DNA from: Lytechinus pictus
Taxonomy: Eukaryota
DNA: 64,000 nucleotides
Assembly: GCF_037042905.1 (NCBI RefSeq)
Contig: NC_087250.1
Location: 8,186,001 to 8,250,000, forward strand
Reading direction: 5' to 3'
Part shown: piece by piece, positions 1-55,187 of the stretch
How the letters are laid out: each line of letters starts with the position of its first letter
Position numbering within the stretch: the first letter of the stretch is position 1
Program-made: the position numbers and the translations under genes
The notes under the pieces: model-generated
Database searches by the model: none
The model's input: the letters and a program-made list of their open reading frames with translations, nothing else
Told to the model about the DNA's origin: nothing

Positions 1-29
1 TAGTGGTGGGCTTTGCTTTCTGTACAGAT
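1..29 (-). CDS. PRDM9: PRDM9 next SET exon (start only)
   Basis: tttgtag acceptor then ICTESKAHH(Y), phase 0, runs off the window. Confidence 0.75.
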
Positions 30-2268
30 CTACAAAGTAGAAAATTGAAATAGACATTGTAATTGAAACTACCATAGCAACTGAAATAGAGCTTGAACAA
101 GAAGTTGGGAATGAAAATTGATTTGCAATCGATAGGTAGTCATACTGGCATTTAAACTGTATCTTGAAATTCATATAAGAACAGGAAAGCTTAGGAGAGT
201 CATCAATTTTTATTCATGGTTTTGTGATAAATAAAAATGTTATGTGGGGAAAATTAAGGTCACATTTAGCTATCTTATTAAAGGGATCATTGCCTTCTGG
301 GAGCAGCTGATTGAAAAACTCTGAAACTAAAAATGAACCATGCGTATGAGTGATTTTTTTAATGAGAACAAAGGGAAACAATGACTTCAAAACTACCACT
401 GTTTAAGTAACATCAGTGTTTAGAATCTGGACTGTTTGACCTGGGGCCTATTACATAAAACTAGTTATGATAAAAAACTTATTTCATAAAACAAAAACTT
501 GCAATAACAGTTATGAAGCTACTGAAATAAAATGTGATTGGCTGAAGACTTGTTATTTTATGGGACCTAGAAGTTTAGAATCAGGAATTTGATTTAAGAC
601 CAATAAAATCTAGAACAATTTCTAATAGCTTCATGTCAAGTATTGCCTCAGGCATGTTTCTTGACAGAGAAAAAGATCAAAGATAAAATCAATCGTACCT
701 CCCAGGCATAACCGCTATCATATCCTGTTTCTAGGTCCACAATGTCACCTTCATAAGGGCCAAACCGATATCCTTTAGGAATGAACTTGGTCGCAAAGAC
801 TCCCTGACCAGCCCCCGGTATCGATGACTGCTTGACCAGTAGACCATCTGGTAGAGTCTTCATTGCTCTGTCCTTACAGCCTTTAGGGATGGGGTTGTCC
901 TTGATGATGGTGAGGGGATGTTTGGAACACTCACCCTCAAAGACCTCATGACAGTCCTCACAATCTAAAAGAGATTATGTTAGGTATTGAATGATAACAT
1001 TGCAAATAATATCTACTACTGCACGTGTCTCTTTCACTTCTTATCCTACTATTTACTAAAACAATGCTTTCCCTTCTCCTTGTCATTATCTTCTCTGATT
1101 TCTTTTTAGTATCGTCCTTCCTCATTCTTATTCTAAATCTTCTTCTCTTGCTTGTATTCTTTTCTTTATTGTCATGACCCAATCTTCCTTTACTTCTTCT
1201 TCCTCTCTCTCTGTTAAAATCAGAGCAATATATGCTGTACAAAAACAAAGAGTTTCACAAGTGAGAACATCAAAACAAACGGTACAGAATTATCACTCTA
1301 TTCAGAGTCATTGATATACTAGTGATAGCCCATGTAGATTTGTACTTAATTTGTAGGAAAATAGGGGTGTAATCAATTATGGTAATATATCTCCATTATA
1401 TGTTTACTTACAGATGTAATGATCATCATCAGGAACATCGTCTTCTTTGTAGCACTTCCTGGTCACGGATCTTCGAGGATACCTAGATTGTCTAGGCGAT
1501 GGTTGAAATTTTGCTCTTCTCCTTTCTGAAACCAAAGAGCAAAAAATTGATATGGATGTTCTTATCTCATATAAAGTTAATGATTTGCTATAAAAGTTTT
1601 CATCAAATAGTTTCACAGGCTTTAATTAAAATAGAAAGTTGCCTTCAAAAAAATCTATCTTCCTCTTGATGAAGTAAAATTATAATTAGATGCGGTACCT
1701 CAAACACAAAAGTTACATTTTATCTGATAATCAGAATCTAACTTTCAAATCTTAGACTGACAAATCTGGAAGGTTTCCTGAAACTTTGTCTTTTCAATAA
1801 TTGATTGCATTTTGAAAAGATAAACTATTAGTATTTGAATGTACATTCAGCTACTTGATAGGCAAAAATGTCAGTCACATGTGATGTGGGAATTAAGTGA
1901 GAGAAATTAAAAGCTGAGTCCACTCACACAAAGGTTAGCGATTGATCGCTAATTTCAGAGAACAATCTGATTGGTTCATGGTAAGTCTACTTAGCAAAAT
2001 GCACATGCAACGAGGATCTTGATTTGTCCTTTTATTTAGCAATTAATTTCTAACCTTTGTGTAATTGCGCCCTGGTGGTGATATTCAAGCAACCAGATTA
2101 ATCTCTTTACAGAATGGGGTACCTCAATTTTTGACATCAAGGTTTTGCGCTGGTTTGGGTCACAATTTTATTCAGAGTAATGATGATAATAATAACAATA
2201 ACAACAATAATAATAATATTACACTACTACAACTGCTGCTGCTACTACTACTACTATTACTACTACTT

Positions 2269-2305
<37 letters not shown>

Positions 2306-5300
2306 TACTAATATTTATAAAGCACTTTTTCCAGAGGGTATAAAGGGCCAGCTTTCATTTTACAATGAAAATACATTCATTGAAGAAAACTTATTGTCAG
2401 GATTCCTACCTAGCTGAGATCTTAGAAAATGGCAGAAAATTACTGTATTAGATAAAAACATTAAATGAAGTACTTATGAGATATTCCATCGACATATTTA
2501 GACTATGTTAATTTCACCTGAGAGAGACTTGGCCTTTCCACCTGCTTTCCCTCCAACTTTCATGCAGAATGATTGGGATTGCTTGGAAGTCCGCTCCCTT
2601 CCTGGAGATGCTTCTGTCAAGGTTTGCTCAGTCTTGTGATCACATGACTGAGTGTTGAGATCACCTGACTGATCCCCCTGATCACCTGATGATGCTGGAT
2701 TGGTTTGTGCCTGGGTAGCTTCATCATAGTCCTTCCACTCAAGAAGATCGATGATCCGCTCTCCCCCGATGTGATTGGAATCATCCAAGGGATTGCCATC
2801 ATCATCATACACGGTACCTGACGTTACAGTGTGCTAGAACAGCAATCCAATGTCAAACAGTTTTAGCATTTGTTTGAAAATACTTCACAATTACATATTG
2901 AACAGAAAAGATCCAGAGAAAAGGAAGCCACAACAAAAAGCTAAGATTCATTTAATCTATCACTCACTCTAAAGCACACAACACAAATAATGTGCTAGAA
3001 ATTGAATGTCCAAAAATATTAACTTTTGTTTGTGGCAATGTTTAACAATAAAATATTGATCAACATTTTCCAAAAAAAAAACCTCCACAACCAAAACATG
3101 ATATTTGTTTTTAACTTTAGTTAGACCAACAGCTTCTCACTTTAACAGTACTCTAAGGCACACAAAACAGATGATGTGCAGATAATGATTGCATTATTCT
3201 TCAAATATACACATCTAACATCTAATGGAAGAGGTAGCGTACTATTGCATAAAGTTGTGCAATTAAAGCAATCAAATAGTGCTTTTGTTTGGGCTTATAT
3301 TTGTTTCACTGATTAAGCAGGACACTTTGAGAGAATTGGTTTTCGTAACTTTGAAAGCATGCAGCATCCCATTTTTCTTTTTCAAAATTGATATATTGCT
3401 TTACTTGTATTTTGCTTTTATCTTACATACTTATTTTGTGTTTTGATGTTGTTTTATTTGTTTTTTTTTGTTAGAACTCACTGGTTTTGTACACTCTTGA
3501 GATGATTTTTTCTTCTTTGTATGAACTGGTTTGGTTACCTTCTGCTGAACCTTGAACGGTGCATGAAAAGATCCTGTGGGAATGTATGCATAATAATAAG
3601 ATCGCACCACCATCTTATAATATAATGATCATCATTTATTGTTGGGCATTAGAAAATTACCCATACTTCTTACCTACCTTTGACATGTATAAAACATGTC
3701 AAACAAATGCCCTTTTTTCTAGTTCACATGAACAATTGTAATGCTCTAAAATCAACAGGGATTGAGCCTTGAGCAATTAAAAAACTAAAGCAAAAACAGG
3801 GGGATGGGGTCTGATGAGCAGGAAGGTTGGTGATCTTACAGAATACCCCATCCAACAATAATAATAATATTCCGCATTTATATAGCACTTAACACATCAG
3901 AATGACGTCTCTAAGCACTTTACAGATATATTATTTCCCCGGTCATCGGATCATTGCACTTCCGCATACAATGTATGCACCTTCTCCACTCCCTGGGGAG
4001 CATTCCAACAAGAGTTCCAAGACTCAATTGCTAGGCATACTACATAGGCTTTCCCATCCTACCGGGTACCCATTTAACACCTGGGTGGAGAGTGGCAAAT
4101 CGCGGATTGACGTCTTGCCAAAGGACACTAGGCCATGGTGGGATTCGAACACACGACCCTCTGATTACAGAACCGCTACACCATGGTGCTTCTAATTAAT
4201 CCTGGTCCTTACCTCTTGATTTCTTTTTAGCTCTCTTAGGTTTCCATTCCTCATCCTCACTGTCACTCTCCTCAACAATCTGTTTCTTTCTTCCTCGCCG
4301 AGGTCGCATGAACTCCGGAGGACCAACCTGTAATCCTGCATTGAAATAATAAGTCATATCTTAGTCTAATTAATCAAACATATACTCTTGCATAAAAATA
4401 CCACCAAAATTAGATGGAATTTATTTATTTCGTATCATTTCTACAGGGTAACCCCATCCGTATTCATACTGATGTACTTGGGGGCCCTGTATGACATAAG
4501 ACAAAGCAAAAAACAAGCATATACTAGTATACAATACAAATTGAAAATACAAATCCTGATTATAAAATGATATGCGACATTGAATCAGTCAAATTTAACT
4601 GTCTACTAATTACCGGTACACAAATTTTAATTTTTTTTAATATAAAAAAAGCTTTGTGTATTGATACGTGGTGAGAAAAAAAGGCGCCTGAATGTTACAC
4701 AACCTGCTTGTAAATTTTCAACTAATATTAAACCATCAATTTTAACATTATCTCATGTGAGGGTACTAGGCTAGTAGAAGTTCACAACAACAACAACAAC
4801 CAGTAATGGCACGTCTTAATATGTCACATGACATGGTCCCTACTTATTCTTTTATTTAGTTTCAAAATATGGTTTAACATTATCTAAATCATTTGAGCTA
4901 TCGAATGAAAGCCTCAGTCTCTGTTTCACTGGTTGTCTCACTAGACTCGCTTTTGCTTCACAGTTCACTACACTAAAATAACGGAGAGAATTCAGTTGTC
5001 TATGACAAATATAGATTTCATTCTTGCATAGTTGAACCATTCTGTTATTTATTGTTTTAAAGATTTCTTGTGTTTATGGTCCAGAACAAGTTTTACAAGG
5101 TAGATAATGACTATGAAACCTTATATATTTTAATGTAGATCTGCAATAACAAAACATATTTTTGACCACCCCAATAAAAAAAACAAAGCAAGCTGTTTTT
5201 GCAGGTTGAGATCTAGCTTAGATATGGAAATACTGTAAAATTTACCATTACTTAGGTCTGAAACAGACTGATAGTAAGCACTTTTATAATTATTACTAGA

Positions 5301-7558
5301 AGTTACTGTGAAAATCAAATGTCGATGTACACGTACCGTATGTACTTAGCCATATACTACAAACACCAATACATAATTTTCTATAAGTTTTCAAAAGATA
5401 TCCAGAAAGTTTGATTTCACCATGTCTAAGGCTTACACTGCACACAGTTCACTCTTATAATTCCCTAGGCATGTCAAGCAATATTGCACTTCTATTCAAA
5501 TATTTTCCACACTTTTTAATACAGAACTTTTAGATCAATTTTCTAGAACAAAATCTACATTCGCTGTCCACTGCGATCTGCAGTAGATCAAGAACGACTG
5601 AAATTTGTTAAGGATTCCTTTTGTAAAAAAAAAAGAAAGAAACCAAATTACTTTACTCTATAATGATAAATAAAGCTTCAAAATCAATGAATTTTTTTCA
5701 ATAAATCACAATTTTTTCTTCAAATATTTTGGATCCATAAGAATCAAATTTGTATTTTTACATGAAGTCAACTGTGATCTGCAGTAGATTGAGAACTACT
5801 ATTTCTTTTTAAACTTGGGATTCCTTTGGGAAAAAAATCGTCCCTTCTCTGTTAATCTAGCTTCAAAATCTATTTAATAATATTAAATCATGACATCTTT
5901 TCTTTGTAAGGTTTACATGTACATGTAGATCCATATTTGGCATAAGAATAAAAAACTACTTTGCAGTCAATCGTGTTCTAATGTAGTTCAAGAACTCTTG
6001 AATTTTGTTTATTCCTCTGGTCAGAATACTTTTTTAATGCCTCAAGGCCTATAAATAATCTAGCTTTTATATCAGAGAAGATAATGTAGCCCAATACTGA
6101 CAGTTATACAGATCCACAGTAGATCTAGATAGAAAAGTATTGCAAAACTCTTAAACTTATCTTAAATTTCATCTAAGTTTTTCATTCATATAGAAATTCT
6201 AACAGGCATTCTAATCAAAGCAAAATCTGACAAAGTATTTTTTCAAAATCTTTCAAATTTCAAAGAAGAGAAATTGACAAATGCGCAAATCCAGAGAAGA
6301 TATGAACACACTGCAAAATTTTTTAATCAGCTTCCCTGAGCTCATGATTAAAAATATAAACAGTTGAAACTACGTTTGAAGCAGATGAATCTAAGATTTT
6401 TTAAATGGGGAGGGCCATGATCTATTTCAAATGATTTTTTTCTTTAATGAGCTTCTTTTTGCATTTTGCGAGTATGAATCATAAGTAAATTGCCAATTCG
6501 TCCACTGCCAACTCGTCCAGTCATCGCATGGTCTGCCTTCTTAGTCAAATGCCCTTTCATCCATCAAAATTTCGTCTAGCAACCATTTTGTCCAATAACC
6601 ATTTGGTCCAATCATCACTTCGTCTAATCACCATTTCGTCTATAGATAACCATATTTCGTCTAATAACCAGTTGGTAATACCCGCTTTCCTTTCATTCAT
6701 TTTCACAACACTTTAGTTTAATTAGACTAAATGGTATATGGACTAAATGGCTATTGGACCAACTGGATATTAGACGGAATTGCATTAGACTACCGTAAAT
6801 GAAAGTAGACCATGTGGTGAGTAGACGAACTGATAGACCAAATGGTAGAAGACGAGTTGGCAATTGGACGAATTGGCATAAGACGAATTGGAAATAAACC
6901 GAATAATAAACCAATGAACCCCAAATAAGTGATATTTTGAATTACACTCTAGAAAATGTGAAATACAAAAAAAATGTCTTTGTTGAAAGTAACGTCATCG
7001 TGGCTGAAGATTAACAGGAACAATTAATTCTCTTTCATTAGTTCATCACTATCCCCATTTCCAAAGTTCTGGGAAATTTTGACTGAATTTCAAAGGAAAT
7101 AATTCTGCTTTGGGAACGCTTGGCCCCCGTCTTAAGAGTTACGATTGATCTGATCAATTCAACCTCAACTATGGAAAGCCAGCAACATCCACATCTAAAA
7201 TGTATGTTTGTTAAAAACGTTATCTATTGTACATTATGAAGTATACTCATCAAAATATTGTTTTCTTGACAATTTGGTGCATTCAACTTTGTTTACAAAG
7301 GACATTTTGCAAATTTCCTGTAGAAAAAATTATGACACTGATGGACTTCCATAGAGTTACGATTGATTGGATGAATCGCAACTCTTTGTAAGACGGGGCC
7401 CTGGCCTACAACATGTACATACCAACTTCAATCATCATCTCGTAGTTCTCTTTGATGTTCTTGAGACGAAGCTTCTCATAGTCACTGGTCTCTGCCCATT
7501 CTTTGGCTGTGAAGAAAGCCTGAACAGCCGAGTAATCATCCGTTGCTGGGAGAGGCAT
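1..7558 (-). CDS. PRDM9: PRDM9 (Meisetz) ortholog, multi-exon, 3'-truncated by window edge: aKRAB - linker - SSXRD - zinc knuckle - PR/SET
   Basis: Exons 7558-7423, 4335-4213, 3573-3482, 2833-2518, 1525-1412, 964-699 and 29-1 join in frame with GT-AG junctions (phases 1,1,0,1,1,0). Translation shows KRAB-like FTAKEWAETSDYEKLRLKNIKENYEMMIEVG, PEFM..SDSEDEEWKP, SSXRD-like RYPRRSVTRKCYKEDDVPDDDHYI, knuckle CEDCHEVFEGECSKH and SET-N SIPGAGQGVF..FGPYEG..SGYAWE, collinear with vertebrate PRDM9. Confidence 0.92.
699..964 (-). CDS. PRDM9: PRDM9 zinc knuckle + N-terminal PR/SET exon
   Basis: ttttag acceptor, YCEDCHEVFEGECSKHPLTIIKD...TLPDGLLVKQSSIPGAGQGVFATKFIPKGYRFGPYEG...SGYAWE, donor GAG|gtacga. 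Confidence 0.93.
1412..1525 (-). CDS. PRDM9: PRDM9 SSXRD exon
   Basis: tttcag acceptor, ERRRAKFQPSPRQSRYPRRSVTRKCYKEDDVPDDDHYI, donor T|gtaagt. Confidence 0.88.
2186..2345 (-). repeat. (AAT/AAC)n-(CTA)n microsatellite expanded from an L2/SINE-type 3' tail
   Basis: Trinucleotide run adjoining atttataaagcactttt, similar to the tails at 3856 and 53702. Confidence 0.7.
2518..2833 (-). CDS. PRDM9: PRDM9 linker exon (low complexity, ~105 aa)
   Basis: gttctag acceptor, HTVTSGTVYDDDGNPLDD...KAKSLS, donor G|gtgaaa; phase 0 to 1; more GC-rich than flanking introns. Confidence 0.72.
3482..3573 (-). CDS. PRDM9: PRDM9 linker exon (basic)
   Basis: ccacag acceptor, GSFHAPFKVQQKVTKPVHTKKKKSSQECTKP, donor CCA|gtgagt; phase 1 to 0. 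Confidence 0.7.
3856..4191 (-). mobile_element. tRNA-derived SINE with conserved central core and L2-like 3' tail
   Basis: On minus: A-box TGGTGTAGCGG, B-box GTTCGAATCC, core CCACCCAGGTGTTAAATGGGTACC, tail AAGTGCTATATAAATG(TTA)n. Confidence 0.8.
4213..4335 (-). CDS. PRDM9: PRDM9 exon: KRAB C-terminal part and acidic EEWxP motif
   Basis: tgcag|GA..., LQVGPPEFMRPRRGRKKQIVEESDSEDEEWKPKRAKKKSR, donor G|gtaagg. Confidence 0.88.
6484..6900. repeat. Foldback MITE-like element built from short cgtcca/cgtcta repeats
   Basis: Left ccaattcgtcc/aactcgtcc mirrored by right gacgagttgg/gacgaattgg. Confidence 0.55.
7122..7401. mobile_element. Harbinger-like MITE (GGCCCC...GGGGCC ends); second copy at 57170-57923
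   Basis: TIR ggcccccgtcttaagagttacgattg / aactctttgtaagacggggcc; internal sequence shared with the 57170 copy. Confidence 0.65.
7423..7558 (-). CDS. PRDM9: PRDM9 first coding exon (ancestral KRAB-A-like domain); exon acceptor at 7600
   Basis: ttatccacag acceptor, ATG at 7558, MPLPATDDYSAVQAFFTAKEWAETSDYEKLRLKNIKENYEMMIEVG, donor G|gtatgt; missed by the ORF track. Confidence 0.9.
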
Positions 7559-8976
7559 GATGACTGAATGGTCTAGATCAATATCAAGCCCAAAGATTTC
7601 CTGTGGATAAAAAAAAGATAGATCTAGCCATTTTAGGGCACAGATACAAATTGATGATGAAGATTTTGACTACCGGTACTGTATTTATAGGTACACTGAT
7701 AGGGATACTAGATCTAGAGGAGTAGGTACATGTATTACAGATTTACAGCCTGATTGATTGAAGATTCAAGAAAAAGACAATAACAGAAATAGATCTAGGT
7801 CTAAATAGGGTTTAGAACTTAGATTCTCAAGGGTCTAGTCTAAGTTACATGTAGATCTAAGCTGGTCAAATATCTAGACCTAGATTCTAAATCTGCTCCT
7901 GTGAGCAGCCACCCCCATGCAACTTTTTCTGTAGTCCTAAAATCTAGTGGTCTAGATCTAGATAATAATTTCTACAGCAAAATATGAACCATTGACTTCT
8001 TTCTCATAAATAAAAATCATATTAGATCCGTTGCTATAAAATTGAACACATAAAGCTTCTGTAAATAGCTTTAAAAAAAGTAAGATCTAGGATCGAAGTT
8101 AGATCTAACTTTTAGACCTAAGTAAACGTATAGTATAGTCTATATAGATCTACTAGTTAGTATCTAGACCTATTTCTTAACTCAGATTAGAAGTTAAGAA
8201 ACTGCCATTTTCCGTCCTTGACTAGCATACCATCTGACCAGGGAAGTCTGATCTGACCAAAGCCTAGGCCTAGATATTATTATAATGCATGGTACCGATT
8301 TCTAAATGTCGAGCGAAACCGTAGACTTTTTAGTACTGGACTTCTGCATTCACCGAGTAGACTCTAGAGACTAGATCCAGACTCTAGATCCAAGTCCAAC
8401 TAAGTTAATTTCTGAAGGGATATAGGCCTACTCATTATCATAGTCATATAGGGCCTAGATCTAAAAATATTTTTTGAACAGTCTAGATTCTAGATCTAAC
8501 TAACGTTAGGGCCTAGATATAAGTAACAGTAACACCAGTTAGACTCCTCTAACTAGGGTTAAGGCATAGGCTAAGGTTTGCAAAACTATTGGCTAGTTAT
8601 TGGGTTTTTATTCACCACAGGCCGCACACGGGGGGGGGGGGGGTGCTGCACACTACTCCGTTTACTAGATCTAGAAGTCTAGAGACTAGACTCTAACTAA
8701 GACTTAGGCCTAACGTAAGGCTAACATAGTATTAGTATAATAGTAACACTAAAGTAACACCGTACAGTTAGGCCAGATCCTCTCTTACGTTAGATCTAAC
8801 ATTAGGGAGTTCGTTGCCCCGGGAACCTCGACACGACGTCTTTAGACAGTGTCGAGGTCCTGAACGCTCCCACTCGTTCTCACCGGAGTGCACTGATGCA
8901 CTAGATTAATCGCTAGATTACAAAAACATGGATGATAAAACGAAACCAAAAATACGACAGTTAGGACTGACCTTAC

Positions 8977-9085
8977 CTAAACAAACTGAGTTCAAGATAC
9001 GTTCTCCTTAAAATTACGAAAATTCGATGGAATCGTACAATAGAGGATCAATTTTCGGATTTCGTACGAATCGCCATGTTGAATT
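8977..9085 (-). other. Probable non-coding first exon (5'UTR) of PRDM9
   Basis: Strong donor TAG|gtaagg at 8977/8976; CpG-retaining sequence; YY1-like CAACATGGCG near its 5' end. Confidence 0.55.
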
Positions 9086-9459
9086 AAATGAAAAACATGT
9101 ATGCGCATGCGCAACATGAATATTTATAAGATGTCGTCACTGTTAAGGTTAATGAATATGCATTACAAGAAGAGATAAGAAAACTTCGGTCGAATCACGA
9201 ACTTGCTTTTCAAATAAATCGCGATTTAGGTATTTCAGTAATGGATATCAATCTTGCTTGCATTTAACATAGAAAAAAAAACATTATTTAAAGACGAATT
9301 CATTTCATTAAAATTATATTTATCTCAATCTGTATATTATGAACAAACATGACTGCGTTTACAAAATACTTTTTTTTTTAAATTAGAGATGTAATAAGTT
9401 AGAATCAAGGTCAATATTGAGTCGACATTGACGTCAGAAACGTAGTTCGCGTTGCAAAT
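9070..9459. promoter_or_regulatory. Putative bidirectional promoter between PRDM9 and RecQ-like exon
   Basis: YY1-like cgccatgttg 9072-9081, perfect NRF1-type palindrome TGCGCATGCGCA 9102-9113, CRE TGACGTCA 9429-9436, divergent first exons. Confidence 0.55.
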
Positions 9460-9615
9460 ATGGAGGAACTTGAAGAAGAATTTGCAATAAAATTAAAGGT
9501 GCCTCAAAAACAGGCCCTGGAAGAGGCCCAGAGAGGAAATGACAGTCTCGTGATTCTCCCAACGGGTTACGGAAAGAGCACGTGCTTTGCCCTCCATCAC
9601 AAACTAATGGAGAAA
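9460..9615 (+). pseudogene. RecQ-family (SF2) helicase N-terminal exon / gene fragment
   Basis: MEELEEEFAIKLKVPQKQALEEAQRGNDSLVILPTGYGKSTCFALHHKLMEK: motif 0-like Q and Walker A LPTGYGKS; putative donor AAA|gtaata; I found no downstream exons. Confidence 0.65.
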
Positions 9616-12600
9616 GTAATAAATCACAAAGAACCAGTTTAAACTGGACCAGTCTGACCAGTAGAATTTCAACTGGTAACTCGATCTGGAAATTGCAACA
9701 TTGGTTACTTGTCTTACTGGTTCAGTGCTGCGCGTATATTTGTCCATATGAAATTAGACTGGATCAACTAAGCTAGACCAGTCAATTTAAAAAGTTACAA
9801 GTTGAAATTCCACTTGTCAAACTGATCTTGAATTACTAACTCGAAATTAAAGTGGTCTTAATATAATATTAGTCTACTGGAGTTTGTTACTGCATGGTCA
9901 CAATATTATTACTTGTGTCCTAATCTAGGATGGGGGATCGGGTGTCCGGACACTTTATATTTTTGAAGCCTTCTTTTTTGTCTTTGGATTACACTAAAAA
10001 TATGAATTCAATAGTTGTAATCATCTTCCATTTTGTTCTCCATAATATTTCCTTACATTTTGTACGAAAAATTGATGAAACTTCGCTTGTAAATTTTTCC
10101 AAATGACTTTCTAAAATTGATCGTCCGGACACACAACCTGTCCGGACACACAACAACTGGGTATAGTACTCAACTGGATTCCATACTGATCTTTCTTGGT
10201 CAAAATGCAACACGTCTTTTTTTATTATTTTTTAAAGAGATTGGGTGGTCCTTTTCAGGACCAACACTTGCCCAAGTAAAGAAAAATACGTCATGGCCAG
10301 TGGCGTACCTAGGATTTTCCACAGGGGGGGCAAAACCGTCCGCCAAAAAATTGCAAGCCAAAAAAAAATAAAGGATTTCGTACCAGAAAAAAATTGACAA
10401 GCAAAAAAAAAGAAGAAAAAAGAAGGTATTCAACTTCAAAGGAGGGGGCCACTATGGTGGCTTGTCAGGGATCAGTTGTGACTCATCGGGGGGGGGGGGG
10501 GGGGGGGGGGATGGCATAGCTAGGGACACGTCCCTTGCATGGGTTGTGAGTGTGACTCGTAAGGGGGGGGGCAGTATAGGTACGCTAGTGGGAAGATGTT
10601 GCCTGAGAAAGACGTATCCAGCCGGTTGTGGTAAAAAAAAAAAATGTATATATATATAGGGGAAGGCGGGGTAAGTTGAGCCACCACCCCCGGGCTAATA
10701 ATAGAGTTTTATTTTTTTTTTTTTGTGACGTCATATATGCAAGCATTTCTCCTTCTTTTTAAAGCAGGTATTTCTGCATTTATTCAAAATTGCAAATATA
10801 TAACAATTATTTAAAATCAAACATACATAATGATCAAATTACAACGGTGACAATGTAGTTGGCGGTGGAAGCCAACAATTTAAGGGGGCACCACATTTTT
10901 TGAAAAGCAAAAAAAAATGACAAGCAAAAAAAATTGAAGCAAAAAAAAAAGGTTATCAACAAAAAATTTAGGGGGGTTCGTAACCCCACCTAAAATTTAG
11001 GGGGGATACTCCCCCCGCCCCCACTTCCGCCGCCTATGGTTATAAGAAGATATAGACATAATTCATGTAAACAATAACAAATGAATTCAAATGCAGAGAC
11101 CAGCTACCGTAAGCTGAATGCTTGAAAAAATAGCAGCCATATATATGGCTAAAATCAATTCAATAATGGTTTGTTAAAAACATGCCTCGCAGCCAAAGGC
11201 TGAATAATTATTTTGTACAACAATTTACAACAATAGAATAATACTCAAATACAAACATGAAATGATATTAAATTACTAGTACTTCTTAATATAATACAAG
11301 GAAATAAATTACTTGCAAAGAATAGGCTTCATCATTTCAAGCGTCAATACAAACCACATAAAATAGGCTATCAAATTATCTTTTTACTCACAAGGTGTAT
11401 CAATTGTTTTCAATTATGCATATTAAAAAAAATGTGCGACACCACGTGCATAATCTCTCTCGAAAAAAAAAAGATGATAAAGAAACTAATTTAAATATAG
11501 AGACAATAGGTAGAAAAGTAAAGAAAAAAAGAATAAAAAAGAAAACGAAAGGGAAAAGAAAAGAAAAGACAAGAAACGAAGAAAAAAGAGCAAAAGTCAA
11601 AAAGAAAAGAATGAAACAGTAAAGAAAGGAAAAGAAAATCAACTACGAAACGAAAAGTAGATGAACAAAATATGAAAATAATAAAAACAAAACGGAAAAG
11701 GGGATAAAAAATAAAGAAAGTGAAAAGAAATCACGAGGGAGAACTAAGAAATAATATTAGAACACGAGAAAAGAATGAAGAAAAAAATTACATGAAAAGA
11801 AGCTAATCGAATAAAAACAAAAGGCCGTTAAAATAGTGATTTATTCACTGGCTGCCACGCAGCCAAACCATCGAAAAAGAAATTACGCCACTAAGTTAGA
11901 CTTATGAATATTCATATTACCCTTTCTCGCATGCCTCATACGATAGCCTTTTGTCAAAGACTTCTAGTATATTTCTATAGGATCCTCAGTAATAAACAGG
12001 GTGAAATTAATAGGAAGAGCGTATTATAAACGTATTATAATCGATTATTATTTTATTTTTTGTTTTTATAAGGATTAGGCTATTATTTTTCTTTTGTTTT
12101 TGTTTTCTGCTAGCACGAAGATAAAAATCAATTTATCTCGTTGCCTCGTCAAAAGGCTATATCGATCCTCCATTGCTTCCTGTACAAACGACTTTTAATG
12201 CACACCGGCAAAATTTTCCGACGTTTTTGCTTCGTTTTGGGGAATTATTTCGAAGTTTTGAGGGCCGCCCATATTGCGCCTTAAGTTGTAAGTATGTATT
12301 GATTCCTTTGTAACAGTTTTGTGCAATTTTATGTATTTTTGATTGATTCCCGATGCTCATCTGGTTTGATCTGGTGAGCCGGGGTGAATCACAACGCAGC
12401 CCGAACACAGTACGTGTTCGGGCTGCCGCAGTAAGGGAGTTCGGTGACTTTTTTGGTTGAATTTCTCTTAAAAGAATCCCAACAAATTTTAAACCATGGC
12501 CTGGCCCTGGGTGGCATTGAAAAACTTGTGAAATAAGAAAAATAGATTCTAATAATGGTGCTTCAAAATCAAATTCAATCAACTCATTGTCTGAAATATT

Positions 12601-22686: not shown

Positions 22687-22803
22687 GTTTACGGCAATGG
22701 GGGAGGTAGCGTCCACTTTGGAAGGATAAAATTTGAAATAAATGAACAATCAGAGTTCTTGATATTTTGATGTTTTCAATACCCCTCCAGCTTACCTGGG
22801 ACG

Positions 22804-25800
22804 ATGGCAGAGGTTTGCATTATATGCCAGATGAGTGGGGAGAAGCCACTCACCTTGTCTTCGAGAGTAGCAAGTTTTCGAAGTGCAAGTCGCCAAAGAG
22901 GTGATGGATTAAGTGATTGCCTCCTTGAAGATACCACATCATTCAGATGTCACCGGGACTGCATTAGTACCTACTGTTCTAAAAACCACATCAAAAGGTA
23001 TTTGAACAAATTGAAAAGGAATATACCACCACATCATTATAATAGTCCCAAACGACTGAGAAGGAATTCAGGTGAATTTGATTTCCTACAACACTGTATT
23101 TTCTGTGGTGATGAATGTGACATCAAGCGTCCTCATAAAAATCCTGGTCGTTGGAGACAGTCTTACTTGTGTAAAACTGCAAACGGAAAAGATAATTTAT
23201 CATGGAAAGACAGCATCCTGGAACGTGGCAAAAACCGTGGCGACAAGTGGGGCAGGGATGTCATTTTCAGAATAAGTTCTGTTTTAAGTGAGCTACATGC
23301 AGCAAAGGCGCGCTACCACAAAGACTGTATGACGAAGTTTTTCAGTAATGCACCCCCTAAAACGAAGACTGTGTCTGACACAGCGCTTGAAGGACTTAAG
23401 ACTGAAATGCTGTCTGATCGCTCACGAATTTGGAATAGCATTGAACTATACAATCTTTATCAGGAGTTGGGTGGAACTCGACTATCACGACGTTTGCTCA
23501 TTAACCACCTGGAAGCTGCTCTACATCCTGATATACTAATCCTGTCATCACCAGGTGTTTCATCAATATTTGCATTCAGGAGCAAGGCAGCAACACGTCT
23601 CCGGATAGAAGATGATTTTGAGGATGAATGCCTGGGGAGGGATATCTCAAATCTTGGGAGGAAAATCAGAACCGAATGTCTTAACCATCGTCCTGATCCT
23701 AACACATACCCAATCAGGTTAACCAGGGACTTTGTCTTAGGTGAGTCGGGATGGAATACTTAAATATAGTGTTGCATTTAATGCTCACACACTTCTTGTC
23801 ATCGTCCAACCTTGCAATTATCTTTATAGGGATGTGTCTCATAAAATTTCCAAAAGTTGTTCTATACTCACCCTTTTTCAGTCTTTGCGCCTCAAAACGT
23901 AAATTCTTAAATTTTTCTTTCTTTCTAACGTTGTATCAGTTAAATCTTTGGATTAAACCCTTTGCTTACCTTATCCTCTTCTTTCTCCAGCTGGATGCAG
24001 TGAAACGATATTGGCTCTACTAGCTGAGATCGACCTGCAGTTGGATTCTTCCTTACAAGCTATGATGATAAGCAATATCATTCTTGGTGTCGTTTGTGGT
24101 CAAGCAACACCGCTTCAACTTGGACTGAGTACAATGCTAAATAAACAGCGAGGCATTATAGAGCAGTTATACAACTATGGTGTGACATCTTCCTACAACG
24201 AAATGCGCCGCTTCAGGATCTCTGCTGCTGCTTCTATCGCAAAGGATAGACGAGGGATGTCAGAATTTGATAGCCGAAACGGGTTAGTTCAGGTTGTCGC
24301 TGATAACTTTGATGCTAACATTTCATCCCCCAATGGTCAGAAAACAACGCATGGTCTAGCCATGGTGATTACCCAAAATGGAAAACGAAAACACATTCCA
24401 TCTCAAGATGACAAAGATGTGCCTACCATAACAAGAAAGAAATGGGATCAGATAAAAGCAGCAAATTTGTAGTTAGGAGAGGTCAGTCTACAGCGTAGCC
24501 GAGGAAACAAAAAAGCTGAGATGCCAAATGAGTGTGCCCACAGATGTGTACCAAGGCTCTCATTTCTTGCCAGTATGCAGCTCTCCAAGATGAAAGCCGA
24601 GTCCAATGACATGGCTTTTCTCCATTCGGTAACAAGCGATGATAAATGTCCGGAGTACGGAGGTTTCAATACCAAGCATGCACGTGAGTCTGGGGAGGAG
24701 CCAAAGGCCAAGACAAGAGTGGCCTACACTCCATTTCTAGACATGACACCTGCCGAACCTGACACAATGAAAACAGCAATGGTTCAAGCACAATATTTAA
24801 CGTCATTGACAAGACAAGAGCTTACGATCATGACATGTGACCAGCAACTCTACCAGGTGGCAGTCAACTTAACCTGGAGCAACAAGACCCTCTTTGGAAA
24901 GTTCATTCCCAGACTCGGCGGCATGCACATGCTGATGAGCTTCATTGGAAGCATAGGGTCTTTGATGTCAGGAAGTGGGCTAGAGGATATTTTGAAATCA
25001 ACGTTCGCAGGAGTTCCAAAACTTCTGTCTGGAAAAAAGTTCCCTCAGAACTTTAGAGCACTTCGACTGCTTGTAGAGGAGATCCTAAGACCAATATTGA
25101 ATGGCCATCAATTCAGAGATATCGATGAATTGATTGATACCATCGGAAAACTCAGCAGGACAACCAAACTGTGGATCGACTGTCTTGTGAAGCCCATAAT
25201 GATCTGTATGGCTTTTGTGAGGGCTGAGAGGGAATCTGACTGGTCTCTACACCTGCTTGCAGTTGAAAAAATGCTACCATACTTCTTCGCATCTGGACAC
25301 ATCAACTACGCCCGCTATGGATTGTACTACTTCCGATCCATGCAGCGTCTCCCCCCTGCATTATTTAAGCAGTTCATGGACGGAGAGCACACTATGCGGC
25401 ACCAAGATGGCCTGTGGAATGGCATCTGGTCTGATATGTTCATTGAGACAACATACATGCGACATGGTAAGGGACCGGCTGGCATTATTGGATCGACTTT
25501 GAATGAGGCAACTGTTACCATATGGGCTTTGTCTCTCAGTGTGCTTGGACAACTGAAGGATGATCTGGCAGCAATGCAAGAGGAAAGAGAGCAAGAATTA
25601 ATGTCTCACAAAGAAGAAAGTCTTACGAGGATAAGATCTGATGCACTTGACAGAATGAAGATACGTGAGGCCTTATCAACTTGGATTGATGTCTTAGACA
25701 GCAAGAAACACCCAACCACAGGCATTGTAAACATCTTCACTGGTCAAGTTGTTGACAATAAAGAGGTCAATGTTGATGATGCAGTCAGAATAGGAACAGA

Positions 25801-27406
25801 TCAAATGGTGCAGTACGAAAGAAAATGGCCAAAAGGGTTTCACGAAACCATAAAGAAAAGGGTGAAAGTGATGTCAAAGGCTTCACCGACAGCAAAGGGG
25901 CAGGGCACATCTCAAATTGTGAATACAGAAATGATCTATGCACGAGTAATCGGAATCTTGGCATCATCAAGAGTCTCAATCTCAACAGACACTTTGTTTT
26001 CGTACGAATTGGCCCGCTACCCACCAGCACTATTTGATGGGAATGGTGATGCACGTTCCACAAGCAAGTCTGTTCTGAAGGACAGGATCAAAGTGGAAAG
26101 TGGTTTGCGTAGTTCAGCAGTTCCTGAAGTCATAATTCTAGATGGTTGTGCTCTTCTGTGGACTGTTCCTTGGCCTAGTTCTCCCGCAAAGGTGTCCGAC
26201 TTCGTTGATGCTGCAGTATGTATCATCATGAGATACGTCGAATTTTCATCAGTTCTTCATGTGGTGTTTGACAGGTATTATGAGAACAGCATCAAGTCAT
26301 GTTGCCGTACATCACGCGCAAAGGGATTCACCCGTGTATATAGGCTCATCCCCGAGTCCCCTCTACCTAAACAGAACATCGTCCTAAACATCTCTGCAAA
26401 CAAGGAACAGATTATAAAGCTGATTGTTGACCAGTTGTGCAACCAACGAGTACCAGAGGACAAGAAGGTAGTTGTGACAGGACCGGATCCACACCCGATA
26501 TATGTTGGCATTGGAGTACTACCAGAAGCAGTGACACATGAAGAGGCTGATGTTATAATGGCTTACCACATGATAAAGGAGGTTAATAATGGACACACAA
26601 GTGTTAAAGTTGTGTGTGACGACACCGATGTTCTCGTCATACTTGCACATCATTTGTTTTTCCAAACGAATGGTTTGTCACGCAAGGTAAAATTGGTGAT
26701 GGAGTCATGTTCAAGTAAACGAACAGTCATCGACGTCAATGAGGTAATCTCGAAACATGAGAAAATCATGCCCAATCTTCTTGCTGCACACGCTCTGACC
26801 GGATGTGACACTGTGTCATGCTTTTCAGGTGTGGGAAAGGCTTCAGCACTGAAAGCTTTAGAGTCGTATTCTGACACTCTCCTTCTGGGAGATCCAGCAG
26901 TGGCACTTGATGAGGTAGTACATTCTTCCTTGAAATATGTATCTTTACTTTACAGAGTGGATTATCAAGACACTCTTGACACAGCACGCAAGAAATTTTT
27001 TGCAAAGAAAGCTGGTGGAAAGCGTCACCTACCACCGAAGCTGAGCAGCCTTCCACCTACCATGGCTGCGTTTCGACCACATTGTCAGCGTGCCAGCTAT
27101 CAAGTAGCCTTATGGATGGCTGCTGGCAACCCTGAACCTCCAAATTTAGATCCTAGTCTGAACGGTTGGTCAATGAAGGGATCGTCTCTTCAACCCATCT
27201 ACCTGGCAAATGATCATCCAGTGGCTCCTGACGAGGTTCTTAACATCATCAGGTGTGGCTGCAAGGGGGACTGTAGTTCTGCAATGTGTAGCTGCACCAA
27301 GTCATCTTTAGCCTGCACTGAATTCTGTCATTGTAGAGCTGATCTTCGGTGTCAGAACCCAATGAAAACGACTTCAGAAGATGGAGAAAGCGAAAACTCC
27401 GAATAA
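22804..27406 (+). CDS. Academ transposase (~1450 aa; DDE domain + XPG/PIN-like nuclease + C-terminal Cys8/CXC), 2 coding exons, one in-frame stop
   Basis: Exons 22804-23740 (G|gtgagt) and 23991-27406 (ctccag|), phase 1. Motifs VADNFD, TCDQQLY, LGGMH, GHINYARYG, SDMFIE; PIN motifs DGCALL, VFDRY, HEEAD, DDTDV, LTGCDTVS..G.GK; CGCKGDCSSAMCSC...CTEFCHC. TAG at 24470-24472 with the frame continuing to 24521. Confidence 0.88.
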
Positions 27407-46934: not shown

Positions 46935-49900
46935 TCAAAACGTAACAAAATCCCTCATCTTAAGCGGTTCGCGTCGCTGACGTCTAGATCGTCTTAGGGA
47001 AGCTGGGTTGGTTGGTTCCGTTTCTGAGGTATTCAAGTTTGGATCACGCGACTTCTCCGGACTGTTAATATCCGCGTTCTGGGATATCTGGGTCCTGGTA
47101 TAGGACGTATGGCGCTCAGTAGTTGGTACATCAGGTTGAGGATTACCATCAGAACGTCTCCAGTTGAAAAGAGCAGGACCAGTGTCATGTACATCTTGTG
47201 GTTCAGATGTGGCTCTGAGGTGTTCTCTGTTCCTTCTGAGAACCTGGCCCTCACAGCGAACTTCATAGGAACGGTCATCCAGTTTCTTAAGGATAACTGC
47301 TTTCTTCCACTTCTTGTTATTGTTGAATGGCTTGACTCTTACGACTGCTCCTGGTGAGAGATCTTTCAACTTTCTTGTATCTCTGTTGAAATACTTTGCT
47401 TGACGTTTCTGGCTTTCTTTCAGTCTCTCAAGATCAGCCTGTGGGTTGCGATCAGGTGCAAGCAACCGAGTCGAAGTGGGGAGGAGAGTACGAGTCCGAC
47501 GACCCATGAATCTTTGGACTGGACTACTCTGGATACCTTGTGTAGGGGTGTTGCGAATGTTGAGTAAGGCTAGATCAACATCATCTCCAGTATCCTTGCA
47601 TCTTGTAAGTAGTCTTTTTGCAGTCTTGACAGCAGACTCTGCTTTGCCATTAGCTTTGCTGTTGTATGGAGAGATGGTATTATGCTGAACTCCAAGCTTT
47701 TTGGCAAATTCAGCAAATTCGTTAGAGGAGAAAGGAGGACCATTGTCAGATACGATGATTTCAGGTACTCCATATCTCCCAAACTGGTGTTTCAGTTTCT
47801 TGATGACTGCAGGGGCAGTTGTCCTCTGTAGTTTTTCTATCTCAAAGTAGTTTGAGTAGTAACAGATCATGATCAAATATGTGTCATTACTATGATGGAA
47901 AAGATCCAGTCCTATTTTAGCCCATGGTCTGTCTATAATATGGTGCGACATCAGAGGCTGGGCAGGCTGTGAGCTGGAGTTTTCTTGGCATGTGGCACAT
48001 GTTTAAATAAATTCCTTGATTTCTTTACTCATGCCCGGCCAGTAGAGATGATCACGAGCTCTCCTCAAAGTTGACTCGACACCATTGTGACCACGATGTA
48101 ACTCCTCTTTCATTTTGTGCCTGACTTGTTTTGGGACTACAAGCCGTTCACCCTTGAAGATTAGATCATCACTGACAGAAAGTTCATCTCTGAAACCAAA
48201 GTATGGGGTGAGTGACTGAGGAAGTTGTGACTTGTGGTCTGGCCACCCTTCAAGAATGGTGTCTTTGAGTTGGCAGAGAGTAGGGTCATTGGCAGTCTGT
48301 CTTTTTATCTCTGCTATCTTGTCATCAGGGAGTGCCAAGTGGTTAACAGCATTCACCACTTCTAGATCATGTTGTCCACTCTCATAGGGAAGAGAAGCAC
48401 GGCTAAGAGCATCAGCCAGGACGTTGTCCTTGCCCTTGAGATATCTCACTTGTATGTCATATGCAAGAGCTCGTAGCAGTAACCCTTGCAGACGCTTTGG
48501 AGCTCTATCCAGGTGTTTCTTGCAGATGCTTTCAAGAGGTTTGTGGTCAGTGAACACAGCTATTTCACGGCCATAGGTGTATTGATTCCATTTCTCCAGT
48601 GCAAATACTATACCAAGCATTTCTTTCTCAATGACAGAGTATCTGGATTCGGCATCACTCAGCATTCTGCTAGCATAGGCTATCGGTCTTCCATCTTGTA
48701 GCATAACCGCACCTACGCCTGTGGAGCTGGCATCAGTCTGAATTTCTAGCGGTTTGCTATGATCGTAGAAGGCCAACACAGGTGCTTGCACTAGCATCTC
48801 TTTCAACACCTTGAAAGCTTTGTCGTGGTTGGAGTCCCAAGTCCACGCTGAGTTGTTATGCGTCAAGTCATTGAGAGGTTTCATCACATCTGATAACTTA
48901 GGTAGGTATCTGGATAGGTAGTTTACCATGCCACGCAAGCGATGGATGTCATCTTTACAAGAAGGATCAGTCATGTTCAGGATAGCTTCGATCTTTGATG
49001 GATCAGGTTTGAGTCCAGAGCTGGATACGATGTGGCCAAGGAATGTGATTTCCTTCAGTCGGAACTGACATTTCTCCTTGTTCAACACAATGCCAACAGC
49101 TTGACATCTCTTCAGTAGACAATGTAGTCGGGCATCATGCTCAGCATCACTGTTGCCCCAGATGATGATGTCATCGGCCACACAGCGGACTCCAGTAAGA
49201 CCATCAAGTGCTTGGTGAAGCCTCTTTTGGAAGATTTCACTACTGACTTTCAAACCAAATGGAAGACGTTTCCATCTGTACCTTCCCCAGGGTGTGGCAA
49301 AAGTAGTCAGTAAACTAGACTCTTCATCTAACTTGCAGTGAAGGTATCCGTCTTTCAAGTCACTGATTGAAAAGACTGTAGCATCTGAAAGCTGAGGTAG
49401 AATATCATCTAAGACAGGTAAGGGATAGTGCTCCCTCTTAAGCACGATGTTGAGAGGTCTGGGGTCTAGACAAACACGTACTTTACCAGATTTTTTCTGC
49501 ACCACAGCCATCTGATTTACCCAATCAGTTGGAGAGCTGACTTCTTCGATGATGTCTTTTGCCTGAAGATCATCAAGTGCATCCTTTACTTTGCCTTTCA
49601 AGGATTCAGGGATGATTCTAGCTGGGCAAACAGTAGGCATTGCATCATCCGTAACTGTCAGATGAACAGGACTTCCAGGCAGAGTGCCAATTGAAGAAGA
49701 CGAGAACACATCAGGATATTGGTCAGGAATTATCTCAGCAACGTCCTCAGGAACTATGTTGCGTACTAGCTCAAGGGAATCATAATGAACAGTAATGAGC
49801 TGCATCTTTTCCCCTGCTGTTTTGCTCAACAGTGGAGGTAGATCTTCCTTTACTACAATGTATTCAACTTTGTATTTCTTGCCAGTAGCAGGATTTCTGG

Positions 49901-51047
49901 TTATCACCTTACACTTGCCAATAGCCTGAGTTGTAGCTTTATTCCACATAGATAGACGGATGTTTGCACTCTGAACTACATCCTCCTCTTTTAGATACTT
50001 TTGTGGAAGAAGATTCACTGTTGCACCCGAGTCCAGTTGGAACGGTACCCTCTGATTGTTGATAAGCATGTTACAGATAATTGGCTCTTTGTCCATATCC
50101 ACTGCATTAATTTGCACAAAACTAATGCTTTCAGCTGAGGATGAGTAGTCATCATCTCCGACATGGTGAACATTCCTGGTCTTGCACACTGAAGATCCCT
50201 TGAAGTGATTAGGCTTACTGCAAGCTTTGCACTTTTGTCCCCATGCTGGACAGGACTCTTTTTTCATCTCATGAACCCTGTTACAGAACTTGCACTTCTT
50301 AACCTCTGATTTACCTTTCTGTAGATCTTTCCCTTTTGGTTTCTGCGTGCTATACTTCTTTCTTCCAGACTTTGGGAAATGTCTCTGTCCAACCTTATGT
50401 ATGTCTTCATTCTTCTGACTCAGAGCTTTCATTTGGACAGAAGTAGCCTCTACAGCTTTACACACGTCTATAGCAGTCGTGAGGTCAAGGTCAGATCTCG
50501 AAATGAGTAGTTCTCTCATTCGATCATCACGCACACCGAGTAGGACACGATCAACAAGCAGCTTGTCTTTCATACAATCACAGAATCCACACGTTTTGCT
50601 CATCATACGAAGAACCGTGACATACTGCTCAATGGATTCACCACTCTCTTGATTGCGCTGGTTGAATTTAAATCTCTCAAAGAATTCTCTGCTCTCTCCA
50701 AGGAAATGTGTGTTAAACTTGTCCATGATCACAGAACATTTGATGCTATCAGCCTCAGTAGCAAATTTCATGCCATTGTAGACGCGAAGACATTCCGGTC
50801 CAACACTGTGAAGGAGAAGGGCAGTCTGATAACGATCAGGTTGTTGAGAGAGATTTGTGAGAATAGAGTAATTTTCCCATTGCTGGCTCCACATTTTCCA
50901 CTCCTCTGCGACATTATTTCCAGCAGACGCATTAAAATGCCCAGGGGGTTGAATGGAAGGCTTAGCATAAGTAGCTCCATGCTGAAGCTCGGAAGGAGAC
51001 CCATCACTATGATTATCATCAGTCATCATGCAATCAACAGTAGTCAC
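46935..51047 (-). CDS. Gag-Pol polyprotein (gag Cys knuckles, protease, RT, RNase H, integrase) with one in-frame TAA at 48003-48005
   Basis: LDSGA protease, LPFGL/VADDII RT, TDASS..DHKPL..ADALSR RNase H, H-H-CATC zinc motif, DLF..SDNG..GKAESAVK integrase; the two ORF-track pieces are in the same frame. Confidence 0.93.
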
Positions 51048-51257
51048 AGTAAGTCAGAATGATAATTCACACCAATATAGCGATACCGAATGTAGAAAAC
51101 AGTACACAGACTTACATATGTGGGACACATGCAGGAATGACTCTCAGAAAGCTGGCGAAATCCAGTTCAAATCACAGTTTGCAGATACATAACAGAGTTC
51201 AGAGAGAAGAATATTAACTGTTCTACGGAAATAGGTAACTTTTCACCGCTGCCATCA

Positions 51258-53701: not shown

Positions 53702-55022
53702 AATAATAACTAACATCATTTATATAGCGCTTATCACAAAAAATATCTCTAAGTGCTTAAGGAAAATAAATAGAAAGACAAGAAATTTCAGCTAAAATCA
53801 AATTATACATGTCGACAATTAAAAGTAGACAGTTGAAGCTGCATTATGCTAAGGACGATCTTTTACCGAAAAAGTGAGTTTTTAACATAGATTTGAATTT
53901 GTCAGTTGAGTCTGCTTGTCTTATGCTCTGAGGTAGGTTGTTCCAAAGTTGAGGGGATGCTGAATAAAAAGATCGGGAACCATTAAGACTGGGTGTTGAT
54001 GGCAGGAACTTCTAAGAGTGATTTTTTGCATGAGCTCAAGTTGCGGGAGGGTGAGTATTCTTCTATTAACTGTTGAAGATAGACTGGTCAGGAGCTGATT
54101 TTTATCAAACATTGGAAAGTAAGCAAGCTAGAGGATCTTAAAATCAATTCGTTCTCGAACCCTTAGCATATGAAGCTCCCTTAGCAGTGGAGTGACAGAC
54201 TCACGTGAACGACGTTCAGCAATAATTCTAGCTGCTGAATTTTGTATTCTCTGCAGTTTGTTGATTTGTGTATCAGGTAGACCATACAGAAGACTGTTGC
54301 AAAAGTCAATGTGCGACATGACCTGGGGCCCGTTTCAGAAAGAGTTAAATTGCAATCAAACGTAACTCTAAAAATCACGCGCAACTTGATTTTCAACCAA
54401 TCAACCGCGCGCATTTTGGACTTGCGATTGATTTTTTGACTTGCGTTTAAACGCAACTCTTTCTGCAACGGACCCCAGTACCTGAACAAGCCTCTGGGTG
54501 GTCTTTTTTTGTAAGAAATTGACGGATGCTACCGATTTTATGCAATGCAAACGAGGCAGATCTATCTGCATACGTTGTTCACATGGGTCTTTAGTATTAT
54601 TATCAAACGTGACCCCTAGGTTTCTAGCAGCCGTAGAGCATTCTATATCAGAACTATCAAAAGAAATATCGCCAATCGGACTACAAGTCCTATGCCTGCT
54701 CACAAAGTGTAAACATTCTGTTTTACTTTCATTTAACTTTAATTCAATTCTGTATGGAACATTCTTAATGTCTATAAGACATGCACTGAGTCTTTGTAGC
54801 GTCACAGCGTGGTCCTCCTTCTTCAACACAAGGTAAATTTGAGTGCCATCTGCATAAGTCATACATGATATTCCATGGTGTTTGATAACATCCTCTAATG
54901 GAGATGAGAAGAGTGTAAATGCTATCGGACCGATAACGGACCCTTGAGGTACTCCGAAGTTAGAAGAGCTGACAATCGATTCAGAGCCATTAACAAAAAC
55001 AGACTGGGTTCTATGAGCGAGG
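53702..55022 (-). mobile_element. 5'-truncated L2-clade LINE (RT remnant) with Harbinger-like MITE at 54325-54476
   Basis: GVPQGSVIGP, YADG(D)TQIY, ARNLGVTFD, SHIDFCNSLLYGLP, LQRIQNSAARI; (TTA)n tail; TSD ATTTT (53697-53701, 55023-55027). Confidence 0.85.
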
Positions 55023-55069
55023 ATTTTGCTCCAAATCTTTGGGTGAAATGCTGATGCACAGCACTCCAG

Positions 55070-55187
55070 GAACCGTAACACAAAGGTTAGCAATGATCGT
55101 AGAATGTTTTTCTACGATTGATTGCATAGACTACAATGTACTATCAATCGTGAAAATCAAGCATACGATTAATCGCTAATCTTCGTC
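55070..55187. mobile_element. Short Harbinger-like MITE (related copy at ~1915-2072)
   Basis: cacaaaggttagc..aatcgctaa arms, TSD CAG. Confidence 0.6.

Follow-up and report, generated by a model that had tools for sequence, protein, structure and literature searches.

A full-length PRDM9 ortholog with rapid turnover of zinc-finger contacts in the sea urchin Lytechinus pictus and its probable role at recombination hotspots

The stretch of DNA analysed here (the window) comprises 64,000 nucleotides of the sea urchin Lytechinus pictus (assembly GCF_037042905.1, contig NC_087250.1, positions 8,186,001 to 8,250,000 of the forward strand). One end of it holds, on the minus strand, the first exons of a gene that, from its predicted protein, is almost certainly a member of PRDM9 (the Prdm7/9 subfamily). 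This transcribed, full-length ortholog probably directs meiotic recombination hotspots in Lytechinus; the role is predicted because every sequence hallmark is present, the SSXRD weakly. The gene as such is ordinary for the PRDM9 family and its kind is known. What is added is the turnover of its zinc-finger array between species and the presence of two complete paralogs kept across speciation.

The exon chain consists of six exons with AG acceptors and GT donors, which join 363 codons in frame without a stop, and a seventh with an AG acceptor, whose first base is 29 and which the window edge cuts at base 1. From the start ATG at 7558 the window product is identical in 358 of 358 residues to P0002 (XP_063956894.1, Lytechinus pictus, 921 amino acids), and because the match is exact the NCBI model is taken to continue this very locus. 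The in-frame splicing of the KRAB and post-KRAB exons, proposed in a first-pass annotation of the window, is borne out by these exon ends, the open frame and the identity with P0002. NCBI thus already has a model of the gene, but its name there ('zinc finger protein 724-like') hides the PRDM9 identity. The layout of P0002 is an ancestral KRAB (aKRAB), an SSXRD-like exon, a zinc knuckle, a PR/SET domain, one lone finger and ten tandem C2H2 fingers.

All seven exons are read from the minus strand. Exon 1 (7423-7600), recognised by its AG/GT ends, a KRAB profile and a spliced contig (contig 2, below), contains a short 5' leader, the ATG and the aKRAB (P0002 residues 1-45). Exon 2 (4213-4335, residues 46-86) holds the end of the aKRAB and an acidic 'DEEW' motif, and is identified by contig 2 and by alignment with the lizard PRDM9 P0060. 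The basic linker of exon 3 (3482-3573, residues 87-117) is the most paralog-specific part, with 15-16 of 27 residues identical to other paralogs. It is followed by the low-complexity linker of exon 4 (2518-2833, residues 118-222), which is covered by contigs 1 and 2, and by the SSXRD-like exon 5 (1412-1525, residues 223-260), found with vertebrate and invertebrate profiles. Exon 6 (699-964, residues 261-349) encodes the zinc knuckle and the first part of PR/SET with the equivalent of Y276 (Pfam PRDM2_PR, E 1.9e-10). Exon 7 (1-29), the start of the next PR/SET exon, is cut by the window edge, and its translation equals residues 350-358 of P0002. Within the introns, interspersed repeats at 3860-4190, 6480-6900 (with inverted arms) and 7090-7405 draw thousands of reads from elsewhere. 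Intron 1 contains three degenerate copies about 200 bases apart (5566-5999), and intron 4 a (CTA)n microsatellite (2214-2330).

Four sequencing runs were compared with positions 2400-9700 of the window. Run X1 consists of assembled contigs; its RNA status was guessed by the tool and the tissue is absent from the record. Contig 2 of this run (654 letters) matches 2644-2833, 3482-3572, 4212-4334 and 7422-7601 in direct succession, without intervening letters. At three predicted junctions it links the four 5' coding exons, KRAB exon through exon 4, and the joint 2833-3482 carries CT..AC ends in the X1 contig listing. The match of contig 1 stops at 2518, the predicted donor of exon 4, and 848 further letters of it fall outside the compared stretch. 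About 70 letters of contig 2 are unplaced; 8976 and 8883 are candidate upstream donors, both unproven. Contigs with the exons joined represent a spliced form and therefore not genomic DNA. X1 agrees with the window letter for letter and is perhaps dependent on the assembly or annotation. Transcript support for the proposed junctions thus covers the first four coding exons and the exon 4 donor, the junctions into the SSXRD and SET exons lying outside the compared stretch. A search of sequencing runs with exon 4 listed none recorded as RNA and was given no weight for or against the gene. A transcript of sea urchin Prdm9 in germ-line tissue is mentioned by Oliver et al. (PMC2779102).

The names KRAB and SSXRD rest on purpose-built profile tests. 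Pfam matched one of the six exon open reading frames (ORFs), that of SET, and found no KRAB or SSXRD in the five non-SET stretches at E<=1; with the whole of P0002, Pfam recognised PR/SET and zinc fingers, and PF01352 (KRAB), PF09514 (SSXRD) and PF18445 (knuckle) were unmatched at E<=10. A profile of 17 vertebrate-type PRDM9 KRABs scored 61.3 bits on residues 12-59, a score reached by none of 1000 shuffles, none of which rose above 7. The 17 proteins were picked by motif; five are named PRDM9 or hypothetical vertebrate proteins and eight have Pfam KRAB matches. Aligned with lizard PRDM9 the KRAB scored 131 (0 of 500 shuffles) and exon 2 scored 64 against P0060 (1 of 500), and the KRAB of the lizard protein is likewise below the cut-off of PF01352. 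The predicted N-terminal end is thus clearly an ancestral KRAB. The linker at residues 90-222 aligned no better than shuffles with any of seven distant PRDM9s.

For the SSXRD-like exon, a profile built from 16 other invertebrates gave 47.3 bits (0 of 1000 shuffles), and the same profile finds the corresponding place in four of four vertebrate PRDM9s (5.9-20.1 bits, 0-3 of 1000 shuffles). By its position and this bridge through the invertebrate profile the exon is read as homologous to SSXRD but diverged. Equally weak SSXRDs are described in eels and salmon by Baker et al. (PMC5519329). Searches of the PDB with the KRAB exon alone and the SSXRD exon alone returned chance matches only (E 0.7-1.6). 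The zinc knuckle, C-x2-C-x7-C-x2-H at residues 262-276, aligns with that of mouse, and over the knuckle and SET 78 of 167 residues are identical to mouse PRDM9 200-368. P0002 Y331, Y396 and Y412 correspond to mouse Y276, Y341 and Y357; the first lies in the window, the other two come from the NCBI model only. The tyrosine that the first-pass annotation had placed in FGPYEG is therefore present, its codon starting at 755 and aligning with mouse Y276, and the remaining SET tyrosines and the finger array, which it left to be looked up beyond the window edge, are found in P0002 with an intact SET. Of the architecture claimed there, aKRAB, knuckle and SET hold; the SSXRD is weak against vertebrates, Pfam misses both it and the KRAB, and the window contains only the first part of SET.

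The assignment to PRDM9 is based on a ranking among solved structures, not on a tree: the PR/SET domain scored 161-168 bits with PRDM9 in the PDB, against 118 with PRDM11, 96 with PRDM14, 85 with PRDM1 and 82 with PRDM12, and the order was the same for the PR/SET of Strongylocentrotus purpuratus P0008. The earlier family call is upheld in this sense, PRDM9 structures standing about 50 bits ahead of PRDM11. The two best clusters in an Atlas feature search are PRDM7/9-like (0.94 and 0.93) and carry SSXRD on 68% and 80% of their members. A tree of the SET domain, with 24 PRDM9-like rows (those of Bulinus and Hydra were dropped because the motif was not parsed) and no outgroup, leaves deep nodes open. 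It is highly improbable that the exons were strung together by chance or as a chimera, or that they come from a different PRDM family such as PRDM11, PRDM4 or PRDM14. The failure of Pfam on KRAB and SSXRD and the use of a structure ranking instead of a PRDM-wide tree speak for such a misassignment, but the exact match to an independent NCBI model, the spliced contig, the collinear orthologs in three other urchin species and the distance to PRDM11 have largely refuted it already.

The array of P0002 has a homogeneous backbone and variable contact residues. Among its ten canonical tandem fingers, similarity is 90% away from the four contact residues and drops to 37% at the contacts. The share of diversity falling at -1, +2, +3 and +6 was computed as in the cnidarian preprint (bioRxiv 10.64898/2026.09.07.749791), at the protein level and on NCBI models. 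It is 0.51 for P0002 (10 fingers), 0.51-0.61 for four other full-length Lytechinus models and 0.42-0.46 for two S. purpuratus models. Three Diadema models gave 0.29-0.34 with all fingers counted, and 0.59 for the longest run of one of them. All of five SET-less Lytechinus relatives (see below) fell at 0.24-0.30.

Between the two closely related species L. pictus and L. variegatus the contact sets are fully replaced. P0002 matches its L. variegatus ortholog P0208 at 536 of 585 residues before the array, with no contact set in common (mean best match 1.74 of 4), and P0007 and P0209 are identical at 554 of 580 and likewise share none (1.55). A SET-less control pair of orthologs, identical at 263 of 293 residues, has two contact sets in common (2.69). 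This turnover between species is a stronger sign than the diversity share.

The L. pictus models include two complete copies, P0002 and P0007; P0004 ends after the first SET exon and the older model P0006 lacks the second half of SET, so that neither model seen of a third paralog type is complete. For L. variegatus there are three complete models (P0208, P0209 and P0005) and a split pair (P0207 and P0003). In the pre-array tree P0002, P0208 and P0003 form one group (99/99), and P0007 and P0209 another (95/93) inside a second group (93/96). Each lineage has an ortholog in both species, so one duplication or more must predate the divergence of L. pictus and L. variegatus. The duplication may be younger than the Strongylocentrotus split, with values of 96/94 in one tree and 91/88 in the SET tree; the pre-array tree leaves this open. 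Haplotype duplication may account for some of the additional models, but not for the two main lineages, which are 83% identical ahead of the array. Both have kept KRAB, SET, the tyrosines and variable arrays; between P0002 and P0007 the KRAB is identical at 45 of 46 residues and SET at 162 of 172, and the linkers have diverged. Individual helices are shared by paralogs of L. pictus (QSNDLTK in P0002 and P0007, NEHDLTR in P0007 and P0006), and no such recurrence was seen across orthologs in the L. pictus and L. variegatus pairs, which hints at an exchange of fingers between paralogs within the species.

A search with the N-terminal 225 residues yielded, among 14 of 924 candidates, six Lytechinus proteins with aKRAB and fingers and no SET (P0178, P0188 and P0203-P0206; aKRAB 56-61 bits). 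They have the same aKRAB, a similar exon 4 linker and the same lone finger as the PRDM9 gene, and differ from it in having no SSXRD, knuckle or SET and in their heterogeneous arrays, which are more conserved between species in the one pair compared. In precomputed Pfam lists the SET-less Lytechinus aKRAB proteins P0188, P0203, P0202 and P0103 have a PHD finger (PF00628) or a THAP domain (PF05485).

In vertebrates the four domains, the three tyrosines and a fast array go together with hotspot control (PMC5519329). There the array recognises a motif and SET deposits H3K4me3 and H3K36me3; the N-terminal domains are needed to turn this mark into a break site, and erosion of the motif selects new arrays (bioRxiv 10.64898/2026.09.07.749791; PMC5519329). 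By analogy, the Lytechinus array would bind a DNA motif in meiocytes, SET would write H3K4me3 and H3K36me3 on the flanking nucleosomes, the KRAB/SSXRD end would help to recruit the break machinery, and erosion of the motif by gene conversion would drive the turnover of the array. The task would probably be shared with at least one further full-length paralog.

A number of points weigh against this hotspot role. Everything past residue 358, that is the rest of SET and all zinc fingers, was read from the NCBI model and not from window DNA, and Pfam is blind to both KRAB and SSXRD of P0002. Against the vertebrate profile the SSXRD-like exon gives a weak 4.6 bits at 236-259 (3 of 1000 shuffles), a signal lost on removal of the acidic tail (369 of 1000). 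The diversity share of 0.51 lies in the middle of the range of complete vertebrate orthologs, 0.33-1.0 (bioRxiv 10.64898/2026.09.07.749791; PMC5519329), and overlaps the top of the truncated ones, which reach 0.524 in vertebrates and 0.784 in cnidarians (bioRxiv 10.64898/2026.09.07.749791). The same script gave 0.83 for mouse and 0.54 for rat and so runs lower than the published values of 0.91 and 0.57 (PMC5519329). Position +6 is nearly fixed in P0002, with K in nine of the ten fingers, and the control for contact-set turnover is a single ortholog pair. The KRAB exon had no depth in any of three raw-read RNA runs (X5-X7, of each of which a sample of about 6% was used). Exon 4 had reads at low depth in these runs, with four differences (H183Q, L176V, D171N and A164T). 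Three of the four match the SET-less P0206 and the full set matches no PRDM9 paralog; because the differences fit P0206, these reads were not counted for the PRDM9 gene. Finally, the full-length PRDM9 of termites could not be tied to their hotspots (PMC12047536).

The failure of termite PRDM9 motifs to predict hotspots (PMC12047536) also favours a PRDM9 that is active as a chromatin writer or transcription regulator, for instance against mobile elements, and does not position hotspots, its array turning over through minisatellite instability or another arms race. The SET-less relatives P0178, P0188 and P0203-P0206, which reuse the same head and tail without the enzyme, favour such a role, as do four amphioxus models with KRAB-like and SSXRD-like ends and slow-looking arrays (0.19-0.22), from which it follows that architecture alone does not imply a hotspot role. 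However, the SET-less relatives have heterogeneous arrays (0.24-0.30) and keep fingers between species, while all five full-length Lytechinus models lie at 0.51-0.61, and the vertebrate combination of four domains, three tyrosines and fast array accompanies hotspot control (PMC5519329). A chromatin role apart from hotspots is held to be unlikely. There is a smaller chance that this copy is redundant and selection on it relaxed, with the P0007-type paralog as the working hotspot gene. There are several copies, some modelled as incomplete (P0004, P0006 and the split P0207/P0003), and in vertebrates, as a rule, a single copy retains the full set of hallmarks (bioRxiv 10.64898/2026.09.07.749791). 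Yet the P0002 lineage is intact in both species (P0002 and P0208), is spliced and has the longer array, and its KRAB and SET have been kept while the linkers diverge, which makes relaxed selection improbable.

A direction of hotspots by this gene is thus preferred. An extended form of the same reading, possible but doubtful, is that Lytechinus may run two or three parallel PRDM9 hotspot specifiers whose lineages are older than the species split, each keeping KRAB, SET and tyrosines, replacing its whole contact code between species and trading fingers between paralogs within species; the locus, 55 kb downstream of a related array on the same strand, would also have seeded the SET-less aKRAB-zinc-finger family. 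If true, such parallel specifiers would allow PRDM9-directed hotspots to be tested directly outside vertebrates for the first time. For the positioning of recombination by PRDM9 in invertebrates, the cnidarian evidence consists of sequence hallmarks only, and the hotspots of termites could not be linked to their PRDM9. The hotspot question becomes testable in a tractable urchin that has abundant gametes, a close sister species and a complete PRDM9 whose array turns over fast; L. pictus can be bred and edited in the laboratory. The stable coexistence of two complete paralogs across speciation would also bear on models of PRDM9 dosage and on Red Queen models.

Compared with vertebrate PRDM9/Meisetz (mouse P0223 = NP_659058.3; PDB 4IJD, 4C1Q and 6NM4), the urchin gene has the same order of KRAB, SSXRD, knuckle, PR/SET, lone finger and tandem array. 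The three catalytic tyrosines are alike, and in both the KRAB is on two exons and the SSXRD on one. The linker between KRAB and SSXRD is unrelated and the core of the SSXRD has diverged; the diversity share of the array is lower than in mouse, with +6 nearly fixed, and the function of the urchin gene is a predicted one. The PRDM9 of S. purpuratus (P0008, P0212) has the same architecture and tyrosines, with 44 of 46 KRAB residues and 160 of 172 SET residues identical between P0002 and P0008. The S. purpuratus copies form a clade of their own (98/96), and none of the P0002 helices is seen again in P0212 or P0009. Other invertebrate deuterostomes combine this architecture with arrays that lack the fast signature: the amphioxus models P0023, P0026, P0027 and P0029 and the brittle star model P0015 have KRAB-like and SSXRD-like ends and short, heterogeneous arrays with a share of 0.15-0.22.

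A KRAB-bearing sea urchin Meisetz was published in 2006 by Birtle and Ponting, as cited in two later papers (PMC3971581, PMC8835667), and the KRAB of S. purpuratus PRDM9 is a standard root for KRAB trees. The statement in the first-pass annotation that KRAB-bearing PRDM9 homologs of invertebrate deuterostomes are known is accordingly correct, and its caution that their hotspot role is little tested also stands. Cnidarians have full-length PRDM9, in several copies per genome in 10 of 28 species (bioRxiv 10.64898/2026.09.07.749791); the text of that preprint makes no mention of urchins or echinoderms. The cnidarian paralogs have the four domains, the three tyrosines, variable contacts and several full-length copies per genome in common with Lytechinus. 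Their duplications are mainly younger than speciation, whereas the two Lytechinus lineages each have an ortholog in both species. Fast arrays in Nematostella, Lottia and Capitella are reported by Oliver et al. (PMC2779102). Among vertebrates, the genomes of cattle, sheep, degu and Atlantic salmon each contain two or more KRAB-SSXRD-SET orthologs whose arrays rank high (PMC5519329 Table 1). Multiple complete copies are hence not unique to invertebrates, and the idea that they are new outside cnidarians was rejected on these vertebrate cases. Nothing on Lytechinus PRDM9 arrays or paralogs, and no paper combining ZCWPW1, PRDM9 and sea urchin, was found in the literature searched, which included few subscription papers and no supplements; Table S1 of Vervoort and the lists of Lorenz may list urchin copies.

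A related C2H2 array with the same type of backbone lies at the other end of the window (62424-63999, minus strand). Its long frame encodes 14 canonical fingers; the reading frame then changes near 62680, and roughly three additional fingers come after that point. Blocks within the array are duplicated, matching at up to 83 of 84 bases, and the contact-diversity share is 0.35. Some 1.9 kb upstream of the start codon of the PRDM9 gene, in head-to-head orientation, a short ORF on the plus strand (9460-9615) encodes the N-terminal motif of a DEAD/DEAH helicase (Pfam DEAD E 2.6e-5; Atlas 0.97), which may be RecQ-like; low-depth reads of matching direction occur in X5-X7. Three long ORFs at 22771-27406 on the plus strand (330, 171 and 977 amino acids from stop to stop) end in a Cys-rich cluster. 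No Pfam family exceeded the cut-off for the two that were scanned, and the region looks like an intronless transposon-type element. A long terminal repeat retrotransposon gag-pol with protease, reverse transcriptase, RNase H and integrase and one in-frame stop near 48003 occupies 46935-51053 on the minus strand, and a reverse transcriptase fragment lies at 54401-55111.

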